DNA of 63,984 nucleotides, filler included, from Acidimicrobiia bacterium (lineage in GTDB: Bacteria > Actinomycetota > Acidimicrobiia > Spongiisociales > CAZKJJ01): the NCBI GenBank assembly GCA_046759765.1. It is 8 parts of 8 records of this genome, joined end to end, with 100 filler letters (N's around TTAATTAATTAA, not from the genome) between each part and the next. Parts side by side here need not be neighbours in the genome. Positions count along the whole stretch, not along the records: positions 9,045 to 17,798 come from JBHICV010000103.1; 7 more parts are not named here. The stretch is one strand, 5' to 3'. Under the pieces are notes generated by a model that had not been told where the DNA came from, searched no databases, and saw nothing but the letters and a program-made list of their open reading frames with translations. This document shows positions 8,801 to 60,321 of this stretch, one piece after another (positions within the stretch are counted from its first letter, which is position 1; each line of letters opens with the position of its first letter). Both the position numbers and the translations under genes were made by a program.

Positions 8801-8944
8801 CTAGACGTCGTAGTTCTCGGCGGATTCTGATGTTCCGAGCTCATGGAGCTGCTCGAAGCTGAAGATTCCGGTCCGATGCGCATCGGGTCCAAAGGTGAAG
8901 TTGACTGCGTACGCGCCCACCATGCTCGCCGCCTCGATGCGGAT
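8801..8944 (-). CDS. DUF971 / GBBH-like N-terminal domain protein, C-terminal part (cut by gap)
   Basis: Manual translation IRIEAASMVGAYAVNFTFGPDAHRTGIFSFEQLHELG resembles the VGxYAv..F.DgH.TGIYsw motif. Confidence 0.7.
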   Translation of the reverse strand: MRIEAASMVGAYAVNFTFGPDAHRTGIFSFEQLHELGTSESAENYDV

Positions 8945-9044
8945 NNNNNNNNNNNNNNNNNNNNNNNNNNNNNNNNNNNNNNNNNNNNTTAATTAATTAA
9001 NNNNNNNNNNNNNNNNNNNNNNNNNNNNNNNNNNNNNNNNNNNN
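8945..9044. other. Artificial contig linker
   Basis: N run + TTAATTAATTAA + N run. Confidence 0.99.
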
Positions 9045-9352
9045 TCGGCGGAGTGACAGACGGCACAGCCGTTGCGAGCCGACAGCGACATGCCCAAAGA
9101 AACCAGATCCTGCGCCGGCCCTGTGGTCGTTGTGCCCTGTGTAGTAGCTGGCAGCGTTGTCGGCGCTTGAGTGGTAGCGGTGTCGCCTTCGGCGGCGCCC
9201 GCCGGGGCGACGGAGGTCGGCGGTGCGGTTGGGAGCTGCTCTTCGGCGGCGGTCTCGCCAGCCGGCCGTGATGTCACCGAGATGAGGTCGACCAGGATGA
9301 TTAGAAGAGCCAGCCCGGCCAGCGCCCCCGCTATACCTACCTGTCCGCGCAT
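9045..9352 (-). CDS. Membrane-anchored cytochrome c, 3'-partial
   Basis: TM anchor, Thr/Pro linker, CAVCH heme motif; cut by gap. Confidence 0.85.
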
Positions 9353-9367
9353 GCCGCAGTCCGTGCC

Positions 9368-9853
9368 TCAGCCGAGGGACTTCATGTATTCGGTGATGGC
9401 GGTGATGTCGTCGTCGGAAAGCTTGTCGGCGAAGTCCTTGGGCATCAGATCGGGCGGGAACCCTTCCACGATCTTGACGTTGGGATCCAGGATCGACTCC
9501 CGGATGTAAGCCTCGTCCACCACCACCGTGGAACCGTCAGTCAGCGTCTCGGTGGTCCCGAACAGACCCAACCAGGTCGGTCCCACCAGGGGGCTGCCGT
9601 CGGCGGAGTGACAGACGGCACAGCCGTTGCGAGCCGACAGCGACATGCCCAAAGCAACCAGATCCTGCGCCGTCGAAGTGGTGACCTCCCCAGCGGTAGT
9701 GGGTGGCAGAGTCGTCTCCGCCCGAGTGGTAGTGGGCTCACTCGTGGTCGGGCTTGCCGTGTCGGGTGCCGAAGTTCCGGCGGAGGAGCACGACGACAGC
9801 CAAACCAACAAGCCGGCGGCGACCGCTAGAAGCCCCCGGTGCGTACGCTCCAT
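9368..9853 (-). CDS. Cytochrome c lipoprotein (caa3 CoxB C-terminal cytochrome c-like)
   Basis: Lipobox LSSC; GCAVCHSADG; VGPTWLGLFG; YIRESILDP; distal Met in LMP. Confidence 0.92.
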   Translation of the reverse strand: MERTHRGLLAVAAGLLVWLSSCSSAGTSAPDTASPTTSEPTTTRAETTLPPTTAGEVTTSTAQDLVALGMSLSARNGCAVCHSADGSPLVGPTWLGLFGTTETLTDGSTVVVDEAYIRESILDPNVKIVEGFPPDLMPKDFADKLSDDDITAITEYMKSLG

Positions 9854-9871
9854 TGTACGGTGGCCGCCTGC

Positions 9872-10606
9872 TCAGCTCTCAGGGAGTACTGACTCGTCGG
9901 TATTGACGGTCCAGAGGATGTCCGCCTTGGAGCCGGGCGCGACGTCAGGGCTGACGCCGATCTCGATCACTCGATACCAGGCGCCGTTGGCGGGTGCCTC
10001 GTATACGAAGCTCATGCACAGACAGGTAGGCCAGAGCTTGCCGTTGAGCGAGCCGGGCGAGTCCTGGTGTGGCGCGACGATGAACGAGCGGTCCTCGGAT
10101 GATGGGTTCTCGTAGGCCAGCGTCACGGTCCCTTTCTCACCGGGTGCTAGGAAGATCGTGCTATCTGGGATCGGGTCGCCGACCGGGATCGCGGATCCGG
10201 CGGGCAGGGACTCCATTGCCCAGAGTGAGTTGACGGCAGGATCGGGTTCGAAGGCGACCAGCCCCACTCCGGGCAGCGGCTCCGGCAGATAGCCGAAGCT
10301 CAGCCTGACTGCCACCTGCCCGTCGGGCGGGTCCGGAATGTCCGCGGTGCGGTCTAGCAGGTGGGTCTCTGTCCCGGTCACAAACGCACTGACGGTGACC
10401 TCGGCCTGATCGAGGCCGTCTTCAACCGAGGCCAGCTCGTCTTGGGTGTCGGTGATGGTCGCCTGCAGGCCGGCCAGACTGTCGGCGAGTTGTGCTGCGG
10501 CCTGTGCCTGCTCGACAGACTGATCGGACGCCGGTTCGGAGGTCGTACACGCGGTCGCGGCTACCGCCAGCGCCACCATCCATAGGGCCTTGCGACTGGC
10601 TTTCAT
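9872..10606 (-). CDS. Lipoprotein with coiled coil and Cox11/CtaG-like CxC domain
   Basis: Lipobox ATAC; APGE..YENPS...TCLCM resembles Cox11 HPGE..AENx..ECFCF by eye. Confidence 0.6.
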   Translation of the reverse strand: MKASRKALWMVALAVAATACTTSEPASDQSVEQAQAAAQLADSLAGLQATITDTQDELASVEDGLDQAEVTVSAFVTGTETHLLDRTADIPDPPDGQVAVRLSFGYLPEPLPGVGLVAFEPDPAVNSLWAMESLPAGSAIPVGDPIPDSTIFLAPGEKGTVTLAYENPSSEDRSFIVAPHQDSPGSLNGKLWPTCLCMSFVYEAPANGAWYRVIEIGVSPDVAPGSKADILWTVNTDESVLPES

Positions 10607-10616
10607 GTTCGGCCTC

Positions 10617-11336
10617 CTATTGGTCGAGGGCTGCGACCGGCCACACCATCACCGCCTTGGCACCAGGAGGGGTGTCCGGACCTACTCCTACTTGGATCAC
10701 CCTGGAGAAGGTTCCTCCCGCAGGAGCCGAGAACGGAACGGCTGCGCACCAGCAGAGGTTCCTCACATAGGGCAATGCGGCCTGCGGGTCGAGCGTGCCG
10801 CCAGGCACGAGAAAGCGAATCTCCTCGTCGGTGGGATTCTCGAAAACGACCTGGAGCGTATAGAGCACTCCCGGATCTACGAATGCCAGCCCGTCCACCA
10901 GCTCAGGGCCCGTCTCGATAGCCTCACCGGCCGGCAGAGAGACAGTATCGAAAAGCTGAGCCCCTTCCGGCGCCAGGTAGAACTTGAACTCCCCAGGGAA
11001 CGCGGCATCCACGACTTCAGCGATGAACTGCACCGCCACCTGACCGGCGGGCGGGTTAGGTATGAATGTGGCCCTGCTGGGACCGACCCTCGCGAAGTCA
11101 AACTGCAAGGTCGCCTGCAATTCCTCTACGGCGGCCAAACGGTCAGAGAGATCGTGTGCGCTGGTGTGTAGTGCGTCTGCTTCGGCAGCGATCTGACCCA
11201 CTGCGACGTTGAGTTGGTCGAGCGCCTGCGTGACCTCCTCGTCGGCGGTGCCCACACCTCCAGTCGTGCAAGCCGCTGCAAGCAACACAACCGCGACCAG
11301 GCCCGCGGGCAATCGAAGTGCTCGTAAGGCAGCCAT
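10617..11336 (-). CDS. Lipoprotein, paralogue of 9872..10606 (Cox11-like, LCWC motif)
   Basis: ATG 11336 after GGAGG; lipobox LAAAC; PPxGQVAV, ENP, CxC, RVIxxGVxPD and PGxKA shared with neighbour. Confidence 0.65.
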   Translation of the reverse strand: MAALRALRLPAGLVAVVLLAAACTTGGVGTADEEVTQALDQLNVAVGQIAAEADALHTSAHDLSDRLAAVEELQATLQFDFARVGPSRATFIPNPPAGQVAVQFIAEVVDAAFPGEFKFYLAPEGAQLFDTVSLPAGEAIETGPELVDGLAFVDPGVLYTLQVVFENPTDEEIRFLVPGGTLDPQAALPYVRNLCWCAAVPFSAPAGGTFSRVIQVGVGPDTPPGAKAVMVWPVAALDQ

Positions 11337-11628
11337 CTGGCCTCCTTCCCCGGCGTCCGATTCGAGCTGGAACTCAGGCTCGGAGAACAATAGCAATTGG
11401 ATAACCCAATGTCTCGCGGCATCAGGCTCGTCTGGACACCCGCGGTACATAGGATCGAGATCCCTATGCGTCCGCATTTCGCTTGGTAGAGCTTCGCTCC
11501 ACAATCCCGACTTCTCTCGCATCTCCGATCGCTCAAACCCGATACTTCGGGAGATTCACATGACTACAGTGCACGATTCCGACACATGTCCATGCTTCAT
11601 CGCAGGTGACAAGGAATGGGAGGCCGCC

Positions 11629-11964: not shown

Positions 11965-12669
11965 CTACCCGGCTGCCGCTTTCTTTCGAAGCGCGCGGGT
12001 GGGCTCAGTCCAGGTCTGGCGTGCTAAATCGAAGGCTTCCTCGGCAGTGAGGATGGCGATGTTGGGCAGATTCTCCAGGGCTTGCTCGGCGATCTCTCGG
12101 GAGGTAAAGAAGAGCATCGAGCTGCAGACCTCTGACTGGGGACCGACCACGGGCTGATCGTCCCCGGTCTCGGTGGGGTTCCTCCCGGGCACGAAGACAG
12201 AAGTCACCGCGGAAGGTGGGTCTACTTCAACGACTTCGTCGGCTGTGACGGTAAGCCGTATGGTGCCTCCTGTCACCGTGTCCGTCGATTCGATCTCCCC
12301 TGTGGTCTCCAGGACTCCTGGCAGCAGGATCGTGTCCAAGGAGCACCATGCGTAGAGGTCGTTGCCGTTGATCCGGATGCGGTGTCGGGTTGGCTTGAGG
12401 GTGAGGGCCATTCCGATGAAATCGCCGTTGTCGTTGAGCTGTCCGCCCGCCGCGTCGATCGCTTCGAAAAGGTCGTCGATCTTCTGTCTCGGGAGGCCGA
12501 GGAGCTCAGACGCCCGTTGCCGTGAGACAGGCTGGCCCTTTGACAGCTCCTCCAGAAGCCCGATTTGCATCAGGGGCGAGGTGTCCACACCGGCAGCTTC
12601 GTGCTTGGTCGCGACTCTCGCCGTCCACGCCGCGGCTACTTCTTCGGTGGATGGTCTCGACACCGTCAC
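11965..12669 (-). CDS. merB: Organomercurial (alkylmercury) lyase family protein
   Basis: N-terminal HTH-like part; LTLKPTRH; YAWCSLD (catalytic Cys/Asp); second Cys in VCSSMLFFTS. Confidence 0.88.
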   Translation of the reverse strand: MTVSRPSTEEVAAAWTARVATKHEAAGVDTSPLMQIGLLEELSKGQPVSRQRASELLGLPRQKIDDLFEAIDAAGGQLNDNGDFIGMALTLKPTRHRIRINGNDLYAWCSLDTILLPGVLETTGEIESTDTVTGGTIRLTVTADEVVEVDPPSAVTSVFVPGRNPTETGDDQPVVGPQSEVCSSMLFFTSREIAEQALENLPNIAILTAEEAFDLARQTWTEPTRALRKKAAAG

Positions 12670-12785: not shown

Positions 12786-13184
12786 TCAGTCTGGCGAGAT
12801 GATGGGACAGATCAACCCGGGGCTGCAATCCCCCGGGCTCAGCCGCTCGGCTCTCTCGGCCAGTCGGTGAAGTTCCTTCTTGATGTTGCGAAGAGCTTGC
12901 ATCCGCTCGTCAATCTCCGTGAGCTTTCTCTCGACGAGGTCAGCGACATGTCTACATGGTGCCTCGCCGCCGTCCCGGATATCAAAGACGGCTCGCACCT
13001 CCTTGAGGGTTAGCCCGGCTCGTTGGGCTGAGCGGACGAAGCCGAGTCGTTTAGCGGCCTTTTCGTCGTAATCGCGGTACCCCGAAGGCGTGCGATCGGG
13101 TGGGGGAAGGACGCCAACGTCCTCGTAAAACCGGATGGTTTTGGCAGGCACTCCCGTTTCGGCGGCCAGTTGCCCGATTCTCAC
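12786..13184 (-). CDS. MerR family heavy-metal-responsive regulator
   Basis: MRIGQLA..TIRFYE..RTPSGYRDY HTH; APC and C-x5-CPI metal ligands; GTG 13184. Confidence 0.93.
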   Translation of the reverse strand: MRIGQLAAETGVPAKTIRFYEDVGVLPPPDRTPSGYRDYDEKAAKRLGFVRSAQRAGLTLKEVRAVFDIRDGGEAPCRHVADLVERKLTEIDERMQALRNIKKELHRLAERAERLSPGDCSPGLICPIISPD

Positions 13185-13190
13185 GAGGAG

Positions 13191-13247: not shown

Positions 13248-13559
13248 GTGGAGGTCACGCTCCAATATTTCGACGACTGTGCCAACTGGAGGGTTGCGTT
13301 GAGCCGGCTGCAAGAGGTCCTGGGTAAGGACCACGAGATCGGTCTACAGCTGGTTGAGACGTTCGAAGACGCGGAGCGGCTGGGTTTCCGTGGCTCGCCC
13401 ACCGTGCTGATCGACGGAGCAGATCCTTTCGCCGACGCGTCGGCCCCGATCGGGTTCGCGTGTCGTGTGTATCGGACCGAGGGCGGAATGGACGGCGCCC
13501 CCTCCATCGAGCAGCTTCGGGATGCCCTGGGCAGGGACGCTGATCGAGGCTCACAGTGA
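13248..13559 (+). CDS. Thioredoxin-like mer-associated protein (YFxxC...FxGSPT...ACRVY family)
   Basis: Divergent from merR; motifs YFDDCANW, FRGSPTVLIDGADPF, ACRVY. Confidence 0.82.
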   Translation: MEVTLQYFDDCANWRVALSRLQEVLGKDHEIGLQLVETFEDAERLGFRGSPTVLIDGADPFADASAPIGFACRVYRTEGGMDGAPSIEQLRDALGRDADRGSQ

Positions 13560-13577: not shown

Positions 13578-14336
13578 TCAGCTCGTGCTGCTCACCACAC
13601 GCCACTGGCCCGGGCAACCCTCACAGTCCTGCCAGATCTGATCTGGCGGCTCGCCCCGCAGAAGACGCTCCGCCTCTTCGCGTAGCAGCACCCCGATCAG
13701 TTGTCCCTGAGGGTCGGTGACGATAACCAGCCTTGTTCCTCGTTTGGCCATCCGATCGACGAGAGGTTGGAGGAGACCGTTCGGTCGGACAGTGGTCGGA
13801 CCGAGCTCCATAACATCCCCCACTCGACTGTGCCCTTCGGTTTCCCAAGCATCGCTGCGGAGTCGGCCCAGGACCAGCGTGTCGCAGTCGATAACGACGC
13901 ACTCGTCCCACGCGGCGTCAAAGGTTCTACGCCTTACGTCACCGAGGAGCTCGCCCGGCGTACAAGTCGGGATATCGGGACGGGTCGAATCGCTTACCCG
14001 CTGTACGGCAGGAGCCTCGCCTTCAACCGGAAGCCCAGCAGCCTTCCAGTCGGCAATCCCTGCGACGTAGTCGTAGACCATTTCGAACCCAAGACTTTCG
14101 AGCCGGCACGCGGCTCGCGGAGACATGTCTCACAACCCATCATGTCAATAGACCACCACCGGCTTGTCATCCCGCAACACCGATACGGTCTCCACGCTGA
14201 GACGGCGCAGCGGGATGCTTATAGCCCCCGGGATATGCGACTCCGAGAATTCCCATTCAGGGAGGACATCGACAATCTGCGCATCCTCTTCCTCCGTGAG
14301 TCGAAGCAACTCCCTGCGGTCAATAGAGGTAACCAT
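13578..14336 (-). CDS. Rhodanese-CBS fusion selenoprotein with two in-frame UGA (VVVY-U-HDGL-U-DMSPRAA), 252 aa
   Basis: TGA at 14145-14147 and 14130-14132 join ORFs 14145..14336 and 13578..14126 in frame; SHIPGA and [13 protein letters not shown] rhodanese motifs flank them; CBS-like C-terminus; hairpin 14099-14117. Confidence 0.85.
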
Positions 14337-14703
14337 CCGAGTCTCCTTTCGCTCGAGGCCTTAACCGTCACCGGCGGCCACGCTTGGGTTTGCGAAATGT
14401 CGGGCTCAATCGGGCCTTGCGCCGACGGTCCAAGGCGCCGGATGCCGACATGGGCGATGCCTGTGCCATCGACACTGTCTTCCTTGTTCACGGTTCAGAG
14501 CAACAACCCATCGCGTCAACACAATACGAGCATGTAACCGACCGGTGCGACGTGTGCCTCCGTCCCCGCGCAGCGACTCAGGCACAGAGGTGCGATCTGG
14601 ACGCTTGAAGGTCACCCTTATGCCTTGCTGCGTATACCCGGACGTTCCGCCCTGCCGGAAGCGGCTCTCATGCTGTGGGTGCAGCTTCCTCCGTAAGGCT
14701 GCG

Positions 14704-14760
14704 ATGGCTCAGCTGCCAACGGGCGCGGTGGCATTCCTGTTCACCGATATCGAGGGTTAG
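14704..14760 (+). pseudogene. Remnant N-terminus of an adenylate cyclase gene (MAQLPTGAVAFLFTDIEG)
   Basis: Near-identical to the start of the 46204..48834 protein (MVELPTGTVTFLFTDIEG); ends at the stop of the convergent gene. Confidence 0.7.
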
Positions 14761-15227
14761 TAGGTGCTCGGGTAACGGGTCTGGAAGTCGATGAGCCCAA
14801 CCCATTCCGGTTTCACGGTGATGCGAGCCATGCCGTTGAAGGTGGCTTTGGCGTGGTCGCGGAATCGGGCGCCCTGGGTCGGCCCGAGGTAGCGGAGCGC
14901 CGACTCGGCGTACTCGTCGACCGCGCCTTCGACGATCTCGATTTCGGCTCTTCCTCGGACGAGCAGGATGCTGTAAGGGGGCTTCTCGCTGTCGACGGTG
15001 ACCGCCACCGCCGGGTTGGCGCGGAGGGCACGGACTTTGGGTGAGGCTCCTGCGGCTCCGAACACGAACTCGGTGCCGTTCCAGGTGAACCAGATCGGCG
15101 TGACCCGAGGAGTGCTGTCGGGAGCGATATAGCCGAGCCTTGCCGGGATGGCCGACTCGAGAAGCTGTTGGGCAACCGGGTGGTCCAATAAGTGGAGGTC
15201 GCCCTGGGGTAGCTGATCGAGGGACAT
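14757..15227 (-). CDS. Pyridoxamine 5'-phosphate oxidase family (PPOX-class) protein
   Basis: ARLGY...PRVTPIWF...KVRALRANPAVAVTVD; ATG 15227 after AAGGAGG. Confidence 0.88.
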   Translation of the reverse strand: MSLDQLPQGDLHLLDHPVAQQLLESAIPARLGYIAPDSTPRVTPIWFTWNGTEFVFGAAGASPKVRALRANPAVAVTVDSEKPPYSILLVRGRAEIEIVEGAVDEYAESALRYLGPTQGARFRDHAKATFNGMARITVKPEWVGLIDFQTRYPSTY

Positions 15228-15244: not shown

Positions 15245-16003
15245 TCAGCAAACCTGGGGTGCGTTCTGGTCGACCACGGGTCTCCACATGGCAGCAGCGT
15301 CTTCGGCAACTCCGGCCACGGAGACGATCTCGCCGTCCAGCTGGTGGTCTTTTACCCATTCTTCGGCGGCATGGCGGCTGGTGAAGAAGTTGACCATCGG
15401 GCACCAGGTCTCTTTCAAGTTCACGTCTGCGTGACCATCAAGAATGAACAGCGTTGCATCTCCTTCCGGCTTGCCGTTGCGGAAGGTGATCTCGATCTGG
15501 TCGCCGGTGCCGGGATCGGTGGAGTGGACCGTCCCATCGCCTCCCAGGGCGCCCAGGATCCCGACGGCGTCAAGCGCGCACCATGCCCAGCGAGTGGCGC
15601 CTTCAATATGGATACGATGGCGGGTCGGCTCAATGGAAAGCCCCGCAATGCCCGTCAGACGACCTTCGGGGTCGAGCTCGACACGGCCTCGGGCTCCGGC
15701 CCGATTCATAACCTCGGCGAGAGTCGATCGATCGACACCAGCCGACGTCGCCCAGGTCCCCTGGTCCACCGGATGACCCTGCTCGAGAAGCAGTCGGAAG
15801 CCGGCGGATCGCAGTGCCGCCACCTCAGGTGAAACTTCCTCCTCGTGAAGCTCGGAGAGAGCCTCCGAGCCTTCGTACCCGTTCGCCGGGACAGAACAGC
15901 ACGACTCCAAGGCGCAGTGTGAATCTGACGAATGAGCAGTACTGGCGCGCGGGGCGCAGCAGCTCGCGGCCACGTTGGGGTTGTGGTAATGGGCGGTAGT
16001 CAT
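15245..16003 (-). CDS. merB: Second MerB-like lyase with Cys/His-rich N-terminal extension
   Basis: GLSIEPTRH, WAWCALD, WCPMVNFF; N-terminal SCC..HC..SCC; ATG 16003 after AAAGGA. Confidence 0.85.
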   Translation of the reverse strand: MTTAHYHNPNVAASCCAPRASTAHSSDSHCALESCCSVPANGYEGSEALSELHEEEVSPEVAALRSAGFRLLLEQGHPVDQGTWATSAGVDRSTLAEVMNRAGARGRVELDPEGRLTGIAGLSIEPTRHRIHIEGATRWAWCALDAVGILGALGGDGTVHSTDPGTGDQIEITFRNGKPEGDATLFILDGHADVNLKETWCPMVNFFTSRHAAEEWVKDHQLDGEIVSVAGVAEDAAAMWRPVVDQNAPQVC

Positions 16004-16066
16004 GATCAAAGGTCCTTTCTCGTCAGCAAACTGTGACATCCCGAACCAGAAGCGACGTTAACTCCA

Positions 16067-16133: not shown

Positions 16134-16514
16134 GTGTCAAAGGTTGGACAGATCACCTGCGAATGCGAGACCACCACCGCTTGCTGTGTGGCGCTCGAGG
16201 CCGAACCCATTGACGAACCCGTCGCCGAAGATCTAGCTGCCGGCTTCAAGGCACTCGGTGACCCCTATCGCGTGGCGATCGTTCATCTCATCTCCGGCGC
16301 CGCAGGACCGGTGTGCGTCGTAGACATCGAACGGCACCTGCCTCTTGCCCAATCCACGGTCAGTTATCACCTGAAGTCTCTGGTCAATGCTGGTGTGTTG
16401 GATCGGGAGCGTAGGGGCCGGTGGAGCTACTACACGGTCCGTCCCGAGCGGCTCGACACCCTCACCGAATCACTGGATAAGTACGCGCAGAGGATTAGCG
16501 CAAGCAGTTCTTGA
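16134..16514 (+). CDS. ArsR/SmtB family metalloregulator with N-terminal CxC..CC
   Basis: FKALGDP.R, VCVVD, QSTVSYHL, ERRGRWSYY. Confidence 0.93.
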   Translation: MSKVGQITCECETTTACCVALEAEPIDEPVAEDLAAGFKALGDPYRVAIVHLISGAAGPVCVVDIERHLPLAQSTVSYHLKSLVNAGVLDRERRGRWSYYTVRPERLDTLTESLDKYAQRISASSS

Positions 16515-59292: not shown

Positions 59293-60321
59293 TCAGTGGA
59301 GCGTGATCGTTTGGGGTCCCTCGGTGATGTGGCCGATGACAGCTGCGGCCAGTGTGCCCTCGGCAGCTAGCGCCGCAAGAAGGGCGTCGACGTCGTCCGG
59401 AGCGACCGCGATAAGAAGACCGCCGCTGGTCTGGGCATCGGCTAGGACCCTGATCGTGGTGTCATCCAGGTCTCCAAAGTCACTGAAGCTCTCGGCCGAC
59501 TTACGGTTTCTTCGGCTTCCTCCCGGATAGATTCCCTCGGCGGCCAACTCCCTTACACCTTCGAGAACCGGAACTGCGGCCGCGTCGATTGCGGCTGCTA
59601 CTTCAGAAGCACGTATCACTTCGCCGAGGTGGCCGAGCAGACCGAACCCCGTTACGTCCGTGGCAGCGTGTGCTTCCACCGATGCCATGGCCCGTGCCGC
59701 GCCATCATTGAGTTTCGTCATCACATCGACCGCGGCATCGCGCTGCCGGCTTGTTGCCCGACCGCGCTTGATCGCAGTGGAGATGATTCCGGTACCCAGC
59801 GGCTTGGTAAGCACCAGTGCATCGCCTACCTGGGCTCCGGCATTCGTGACTAGGTTGTCCGGCTCAACGAGTCCGGTCACGGCAAAGCCGTACTTGGGCT
59901 CTTGGTCGTCGATCGAATGGCCGCCCACGATCGAACACCTCGCTTCCGAGAGGACCTTCTGCCCTCCCTCGATGACCTCCTCTAGAAGGTCAAACGAGAG
60001 CTCCTCGCGGGGCCAGCTCACCAGCTGGAGCGCAGTGAGGGGCGTTGCTCCCATGGCGTATATGTCGGACAGCGCGTTGGCAGCGGCGATCCTGCCCCAG
60101 TCGTAGGCCTCGTCCACGATGGGCGTGAAGAAGTCAACTGATTGCGCGACGAGCTGGCCGGATGGGAGACGGAACACGGCTGCATCGTCTGCCGTCTCCG
60201 GCCCCACCAGCAGGTCGACGTCTGTGGGAGGTTGCAACAGGCGCAGGACCTGCGCCAGCTCGTCAGGACCGAGCTTGCAAGCTCAGCCGGCGCCGTGCGA
60301 GTAGCGGGTCAGTTTGGTCAT
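59293..60321 (-). CDS. selD: Selenide, water dikinase (Sec-containing), 342 aa
   Basis: ATG 60321 MTKLTRYSHGAG-U-ACKLG with TGA 60283-60285; DDAAV, DFFTPIVD, NALSDIYAMG, TDVTGFGLLGH, DAQTSGGLL. Confidence 0.96.

Follow-up and report, generated by a model that had tools for sequence, protein, structure and literature searches.

Selenocysteine (Sec) is known from the active-site loop of several rhodanese-type proteins; forms 1 to 4 carry the motifs UxxS, UxxG, CxU (NF041203) and UxxG, and form 5, TsoB (NF045694), carries UxxxxU with two Sec residues in a protein resembling a rhodanese/DsbD fusion (PMC13188914, with Haft and Tolstoy 2025 as its source for TsoB). In the accessible text of PMC13188914 the table of 119 selenoprotein families holds no C-x4-U rhodanese form and no CBS fusion, and the term CBS occurs 0 times; nor is a CBS fusion mentioned in the accessible parts of PMC9312934 and PMC12013277. 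A literature search found neither a rhodanese-CBS selenoprotein nor a rhodanese within mer loci, although the family could be listed in supplements or by Deng et al. 2026. The closest solved fold is BH2092 (PDB 3NHV/3O3W; rmsd 1.3 A, 31% identity), a structural-genomics target with the same two-Cys loop spacing, for which the search found no functional study; unlike the protein described here it is a single domain with Cys only.

Two closely spaced UGA codons and a mosaic of Cys, one-Sec and two-Sec forms are also features of the UXXU Group 4 [NiFeSe] hydrogenases, for which the accessible text proposes one SECIS for two UGAs and a tRNA, tRNA-ReC, that may put Cys at one or both of these codons (PMC13582414). 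However, these are unrelated proteins, linked to tRNA-ReC, with UGAs three codons apart rather than the five found here. The SAO system, with its MerB-like SaoL, and Sec-type HgcAB likewise tie selenoproteins to MerB-like genes and organometallic chemistry; the SAO system is an anaerobe operon of other families, whereas the gene described here encodes a rhodanese-CBS protein and lies beside Cys-type MerB and MerR. The available portion of the same source reports no selenoprotein among the characterized mercury-resistance families (10.1101/2022.07.06.499078). Roughly half of MerB genomes lack MerA, and the fate of Hg(II) in these is described as unexplained in the accessible text of PMC8261052.

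The protein studied here shares with TsoB a rhodanese domain with U-x4-U and two Sec residues, a likeness at the level of motif, and TsoB is its best NCBIfam match (residues 11-116 to profile positions 52-168, E 1.4e-11). It falls outside TsoB, scoring 43.2 bits against a cut-off of 805 with the rhodanese part alone matching; where TsoB has a DsbD-like region, it has a CBS pair and a CxxC tail. Unlike TsoB, its rhodanese-CBS family is mostly C-x4-U and has DF, MerR and MerB genes as neighbors. Forms 1 to 4 share Sec in the active-site loop and differ in motif, and NF041203 gives 36 bits against a cut-off of 115. The rhodanese-CBS family is real and uncatalogued in the lists compared, while the U-x4-U rhodanese itself is already known; the word rare, used for the di-Sec site in the first-pass annotation, has accordingly to be toned down in view of TsoB and of the shared SECIS proposed, in the source as seen, for UXXU hydrogenases. 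What is new, as far as sequence can tell, is that a subclade rich in U-x4-U forms lies beside mercury-type genes and has a CxxC at its C-terminus, which hints that it handles mercury or soft metals. The best overall explanation of the locus, with a probability of about one half, is a two-Sec rhodanese-CBS protein, decoded with one SECIS, that has a soft-metal role in a MerR/MerB-type cassette.

The rhodanese-CBS gene and its family

The window, the whole 63,984-nt stretch of DNA analyzed, joins parts of eight contigs from a 2.7 Mb, 63% GC, 92%-complete assembly, and the gene lies on its JBHICV010000103.1 part. The nearest named homologues suggest an Acidimicrobiia-like actinobacterium as the host. 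Read on the minus strand from 14336 to 13578, it forms a single frame of 252 residues with TGA at residues 64 and 69; the order is VVVY-TGA-HDGL-TGA-DMSPRAA, a run of 11 residues, the CBS pair and finally, at 13580-13578, a stop codon that is also TGA. A ribosome-binding site, AAAGGAG, stands 6 nt 5' of the ATG (14343-14349, minus strand); a promoter-like site was looked for and none was found. The coordinates and read-through frame of the first-pass annotation stand, with the addition that the gene, whose strand it left unstated, is on the minus strand. The plus-strand reading of 13578-14336 was dropped as full of stops and on the wrong strand.

The rhodanese domain (residues 8-100; 14037-14315, minus strand) matches PF00581 with E 4e-17 and 63 bits against a cut-off of 22.2, the CBS match being weak. 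A model based on a 95-row alignment has pLDDT 93.8, lower in the tail; a single-sequence prediction (pLDDT 36.6) was set aside. The rhodanese domain has a loop of C-x4-C type and lies within rmsd 1.3 A of 3NHV over 107 columns; in the model the nucleophile position is predicted at the loop start, with U64 at the catalytic position and U69 at the loop end. The first TGA, UGA1 (14145-14147, minus strand), corresponds in the alignment to the first Cys in the YCWGPAC loop of BH2092. Other rhodaneses have C-x-x-G-x-R loop types, relative to which the loop here has a two-residue insertion. The CBS pair, a Bateman module, spans residues ~114-226 (13659-13997, minus strand) on the basis of the model and of 2EF7, 5KS7 and 3K2V. 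The CBS ribose-phosphate motif is G-h-h-(T/S)-x-x-D; across 95 aligned proteins the first repeat has G-R-L-R and no fixed Asp, and the acidic site of the second is Asp in 54 and Glu in 19, Glu being the residue of the window protein. The C-terminal CxxC (CEGC, 13614-13625, minus strand) falls in the lower-confidence tail of the model, and the protein, said earlier to continue into CBS-like sequence ending in CEGC, does have the former and extends 11 residues beyond the latter. A Cys-pair tail occurs in all 14 U-x4-U proteins, of which 13 share ancestry and the other, L074, ends in a Cys run; 10 of 66 C-x4-U proteins have a His-rich tail.

Protein searches yielded matches in 21 of 61 relatives, in 37 of 401 genomes from the class and in 45 of 401 from the phylum, the count among relatives being taken at E 1e-10 and including distant rhodaneses. 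Codons were read at loci where tblastn (E 1e-25) spanned both positions, 102 in number and 101 after removal of one duplicate. These comprise 73 C-x4-U, 14 U-x4-U (the window gene and a same-genome paralog included) and 9 C-x4-C loci, with C-x4-other at 3, other-x4-U at 1 and neither at 1; U-x4-C is found at 0 of the 101, an absence that is non-significant (Fisher p 0.21). Ten C-x4-U rows come from the unpublished genomes G015, G305, G423, G467, G505, G534 and G733, and no claim rests solely there. The C-x4-C, C-x4-U and U-x4-U homologues predicted by the first-pass annotation are thus all present, and its di-Sec active site needs a change of emphasis: the second position, UGA2 (14130-14132, minus strand), is the main Sec of the family, TGA in 88 of 101 loci, and the catalytic position is TGA in 14 only.

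On a quick tree of 98 rows, computed with positions 64 and 69 masked and with three fragments and one duplicate excluded, one clade of 25 rows (SH-aLRT 97) holds 13 U-x4-U, 10 C-x4-U and 2 C-x4-C members intermixed, and the fourteenth U-x4-U gene (L074) lies outside it. Two elements of the overall explanation, which share its even odds as parts of the whole, are that a C-x4-U family widespread in Actinomycetota would have had U69 as its ancestral Sec, and that U64 would have been gained in the Acidimicrobiia-related subclade and at least once elsewhere, reusing the existing SECIS.

Protein databases truncate the protein: 113 of the best 120 hits begin directly after UGA2 and none of the retrieved proteins contains U. 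Among 150 cluster representatives 66 begin after UGA2, 24 are unreadable by pattern and the rest divide into 53 with C/C, 1 with Trp and 6 with other pairs; Trp, named at the outset as the residue that would speak against Sec, thus occurs in 1 of 60 readable full-length representatives. On two Pseudonocardia plasmids, where the gene is C-x4-U in each case, RefSeq splits it into two CDS, and all-Cys full-length orthologues exist at 60-62% identity. In L215, on the Rubrobacter marinus plasmid NZ_CP045122.1 (~8900-9600), a C-x4-U gene has an intact hairpin and an apparently frameshifted 5' part, and its annotation covers the CBS half alone. The paralog of the host genome (G000:C36:7317-8045; L040, L149) is a U-HDGL-U rhodanese-CBS gene of 50% identity in a similar merB-merR-DF-merB cassette. 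Other vent organisms show first-position TGAs in loose alignment ends, U-ADNQ and U-MDYQ, hand-read for the first codon only.

Both TGA codons are covered by contigs of two public runs, one of which may be the source sample, with no alternative letter at either codon, and both recur at 12 loci (10 other genomes and one metagenome contig) besides the paralog; sequencing error, raised earlier as a possible refutation, is excluded by these matches. The runs containing this DNA are hydrothermal-vent metagenomes of one study, and no RNA runs are among the listed holders of the stretch.

One SECIS hairpin and two UGA codons

The two codons are followed by a bacterial SECIS (14099-14117, minus strand), recognized by sequence, folding and covariation, that has a 7-bp stem and a CGUGC loop with G at loop position 2 and then U. 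Its stem lies 12 nt from UGA2 and 27 nt from UGA1 and its loop 19 and 34 nt, which bears out the placing of CGAGCCG-CGTGC-CGGCTCG at the 13th and 28th base by the first-pass annotation; its folding energy is -12.3 kcal/mol. The bSECIS model, as set out in the accessible text of PMC13188914, calls for a stem of 4-16 bp, a loop of 3-9 nt with a G among its first two positions, a distance of 16-37 nt from UGA and an energy below -7.5 kcal/mol, and the hairpin agrees with it on stem, loop, energy and both UGA distances. Of the 72,505 TGA triplets of the genome just 124 (0.17%, the selenoprotein gene and its paralog both included) have a 7-bp hairpin of this kind, perfectly paired and with its loop led by G, so its presence here is not chance.

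All seven pairs are intact in 86 of 88 loci with UGA2 as against 3 of 13 without it. Over 83 distinct rows 99.7% of cells are paired and 12 cells have a two-sided change, from C-G to U-A or A-U, with Arg becoming Gln or Leu; 0 of 500 shuffles equal this, relatedness of the rows inflating such counts. The synonymous-codon test is the stronger one: in 82 rows with UGA2 the least variable 4 of 66 conserved synonymous columns are codons 76, 78, 79 and 75, and the frozen codons are GCG (82/82), CGG (69/69) and CTC (80/82) against backgrounds of 34, 31 and 46%. By these sequence comparisons the hairpin is a conserved, covarying bacterial SECIS that has decayed in Cys forms. The SECIS of the paralog (G000:C36:7317-8045) has a compensatory A-U pair.

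The host genome encodes selA, one copy of selB and a Sec-type selD, all over profile cut-off. A tRNA-Sec was not found in the 92%-complete assembly by Rfam search, relaxed ARAGORN, an anticodon-loop pattern or a profile of five relatives' tRNA-Sec; tRNA-Sec(UCA) is present in all five gene-carrying relatives examined. Among 80 of 82 genomes searched selA occurs in 65 of 70 with a UGA form versus 5 of 10 without, and it is common regardless (275 of 401 genomes of the class). Three further elements of the genome were noted: a tRNA-like sequence (G000:C125:335-421) whose anticodon is TGA, whose variable arm is long and whose D arm is aberrant, not called by default ARAGORN, which reads as a degenerate tRNA-Ser or allo-tRNA; and two likely other selenoproteins (G000:C42, ~9934, plus strand; G000:C114, ~2212 from the contig end, minus strand), each with an in-frame TGA, a SECIS-like hairpin and an open frame, their TGA contexts being TW-U-PLC and C-x2-U.

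As in bacterial selenoproteins generally, in-frame UGA aligns to Cys in homologues with the frame conserved on both sides. Sec at residue 69 is, on this comparative evidence, nearly certain, and residue 64 is probably Sec as well; the first-pass proposal of Sec decoding with a SECIS is upheld by the covarying hairpin, the frozen synonymous codons and the selA, selB and selD genes. The lack of tRNA-Sec in the assembly would suit a pseudogene, an erroneous sequence or a code in which TGA means Trp or Gly, a far-fetched alternative that is refuted by the conservation pattern: both TGAs are conserved in 11 genomes, confirmed in other contigs and aligned to Cys, a selected hairpin follows them, and TGA also terminates this gene and many homologues.

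A review states, in the text available, that SelB requires a SECIS 11 nt from UGA (PMC11431864), a distance that suits UGA2 and the formate dehydrogenase of this genome and not UGA1, so UGA1 decoding may be inefficient. Folding revealed no further G-loop hairpin that could be a second SECIS for UGA1. It did give a mini-helix of 4 bp (GAGA-CAUG-UCUC; 14120-14131, minus strand) that may form in the stretch from UGA1 to the SECIS and has no G-led loop; its TCT codon is found in 10 of 14 U-x4-U versus 2 of 10 subclade C-x4-U loci, a pattern confounded by ancestry and therefore not counted as evidence. A precedent from the same organism is selD on another contig of the window (59392-60315, minus strand): a TGA lies in its frame near 60285, and 26 nt downstream of this TGA begins a distal hairpin resembling a SECIS, an unusually long spacing. 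In a survey of 30 of 40 selD matches (L015, L184-L212), the 25 Sec forms of this taxonomic order all have a GU-led (GUN) loop in the distal hairpin, and 22 of them form 7/7 pairs; it occurs in 0 of 5 Cys forms. A nearer hairpin with a variable loop is also present, and SelB probably uses the distal one of the two tandem hairpins. The conserved hairpin at 26 nt suggests that the local SelB is able to work at ~27 nt, and by analogy with selD a single SECIS serving UGA1 and UGA2, as the first-pass annotation had it, is plausible and retains the standing of a proposal.

Among the UXXU-hydrogenase genomes covered by the accessible text of PMC13582414, ~56% have tRNA-ReC, and a tRNA of that kind, or near-cognate read-through, might place Cys at UGA1 and leave U69 alone as Sec. 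The distance of UGA1 from the stem and the Cys found at the residue-64 position in 85 of 101 loci would fit such Cys insertion. It nonetheless appears improbable: a normal tRNA-Sec(UCA) is the top hit of the tRNA-Sec family in five genomes (four U-x4-U, one C-x4-U), the ten further regions examined hold 12 tRNA genes of ordinary Ser/Leu type, the host has one selB, and selD shows similarly long spacing. No tRNA-ReC-like tRNA occurs among the hits examined in five relatives.

The lowest-energy fold of the free mRNA is another long hairpin that hides UGA2 and half of the SECIS. This competing fold, the interleaving of UU, CU and CC forms in the subclade, by which U64 seems exchangeable, and an ATG two codons 3' of UGA2 (M71) in 65 of 95 aligned proteins could together mean that UGA1 is a selenium-dependent bottleneck that stops most ribosomes when selenium is short and tunes the amount of protein more than its chemistry, with re-initiation at M71 possibly yielding a separate CBS protein. 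We consider this very improbable, as 30 of 95 proteins have Leu, Ile, Thr or Ser in place of M71, a split at M71 would, by the model, sever the rhodanese fold before helix 71-81, and the all-Cys orthologues at 60-62% identity are full-length. On the preferred two-Sec explanation, the SECIS would fold once the ribosome covers the first codons despite the competing mRNA hairpin; SelB on hairpin 14117-14099 would deliver Sec-tRNA to UGA1 first, the stem being 27 nt away, and the same SelB-hairpin complex would serve UGA2 five codons later, with the stem 12 nt away.

Mercury-type genes around the locus

The selenoprotein gene is flanked in the window by two MerB-like genes, and the first-pass annotation was silent on mercury genes near it. 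On one side, two genes upstream and on the same strand, is a MerB-like lyase (merB2, 15245-16039, minus strand), with a PPOX-class F420-dependent oxidoreductase (14757-15175, minus strand) in between and an ArsR/SmtB metalloregulator (16134-16514, plus strand) divergent from merB2, the latter two identified by profile search. The second lyase, merB1 (11965-12669, minus strand), has Cys and Asp at the expected catalytic-triad positions; both lyase profile matches are below cut-off. Next to merB1 is a MerR-family heavy-metal regulator with three Cys (12786-13190, minus strand; best model Hg-MerR, below cut-off), followed by a small protein of the DF family in its Cys form (13248-13559, plus strand, start inferred; NF049942, 64 bits against a cut-off of 70). 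MerB-like lyase 2 also has a Cys-rich N-terminal extension (two CC pairs and one Cys) and a C-terminal Cys. The minus strand past merB1 (9045-11522) holds two c-type cytochrome-like and two related lipoprotein-like ORFs, and a short remnant ending in a stop, which we take to resemble an adenylate-cyclase N-terminus, lies at 14705-14760 (plus strand), with similar pieces on five other contigs.

The locus does not belong to a canonical mer operon: its MerR and MerB neighbors score below the curated cut-offs, which leaves the metal not fixed, and merA, over cut-off in the host genome, is on another contig. Of 50 genomes searched 15 have a merA over cut-off; for subclade genomes the figure is 5 of 20. 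In the window the DF gene is convergent with the selenoprotein gene whereas in relatives it is directly upstream and co-oriented; the 420-bp gap upstream of the selenoprotein gene shows no DF relic and no inversion scar. A complex prediction of DF with the rhodanese domain of an all-Cys natural homologue gave a score of 0.00.

Neighbors were counted mostly in flanks of ±1.5 kb. In the subclade DF, MerR, MerB or MerA is near 21 of 22 loci, with DF directly upstream and co-oriented in 19, MerR near 17 and MerB near 7; these loci share ancestry, so the neighborhood counts as few events. Outside the subclade DF is directly upstream in 5 and MerB near 8 of 79 loci, and 60 of the 79 have none of DF, MerR, MerB and MerA nearby. 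In 24 of all 101 loci the distance to an upstream DF is between -20 and +23 nt, and of 47 loci with wide flanks 29 have DF, MerB or MerA and 18 none of the three. The order merR-merB-DF-gene, with no merA found, is seen on a plasmid of Pseudonocardia autotrophica NBRC 12743; a P. broussonetiae plasmid has merA ~1.3 kb upstream of the gene on the same strand. Eight loci of one outer clade (L084, L089, L091, L092, L099, L102, L117, L121) have a small Cys-rich ORF after the gene.

Mercury genes are absent from the neighborhood of most family members, and other neighbors include luciferase-like monooxygenases and the small Cys-rich ORF. Together with the rhodanese fold, its retained catalytic position and the C-x4-C loops of unrelated rhodaneses in the same genomes, this lends some weight to a general role, in which a two-Sec enzyme of sulfur or selenium transfer or thiol redox, for instance a persulfide or perselenide carrier resolved through an Se-Se or Se-S bond, is joined by mercury genes that merely hitch-hike on mobile metal islands. 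Such a general role remains credible and is on balance unlikely, since MerB stands in the short flanks of 15 of 101 loci from several families, other lineages (5 of 79 loci) and the Pseudonocardia plasmid show the DF coupling again, and metal-type tails recur. On the DF/MerR/MerB context we lean, at slightly less than even odds, towards a protein that binds Hg or a similar soft metal or caps it with chalcogen.

Proposed role and significance

In the preferred soft-metal explanation the two rhodanese-loop selenols would form a soft-metal and sulfane-binding site for the MerR/MerB-type cassette, a suggestion drawn from motif and gene context that we hold tentatively, at a little short of even chances. 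The selenol pair would bind Hg(II) or organomercury released by MerB, or pass S or Se to it; the C-terminal CxxC and the co-encoded DF protein could act as relay or reductant, and the CBS pair probably dimerizes the protein and may bind an adenine nucleotide. The first-pass annotation had put forward nucleotide sensing by the CBS domains and a possible diselenide, both of them conjectural. A more specific and rather doubtful version is that the two-Se rhodanese is a MerA-independent mercury sink, in which Hg(II) taken over from MerB by a pair of selenols would be converted to Hg-Se or Hg-S by rhodanese-type chalcogen transfer.

Whatever its substrate, this is a large selenoprotein family that gene callers split in two. 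Its natural C/C, C/U and U/U alleles, of ~60% identity and with the same hairpin region, offer a test of how one SECIS serves two codons and also of what the second selenium adds. If the mercury link holds, the family bears on the missing selenoprotein of mercury resistance, as the accessible text of 10.1101/2022.07.06.499078 presents it, and on the fate of Hg(II) in genomes that have MerB without MerA (PMC8261052, as available). Were the mercury-sink version true, mercury-resistance cassettes would have their first selenoprotein, and bacteria with MerB and no MerA one way of surviving demethylation; an actinobacterial SelB would also be seen to use a single hairpin, 12 and 27 nt away, for two UGAs.
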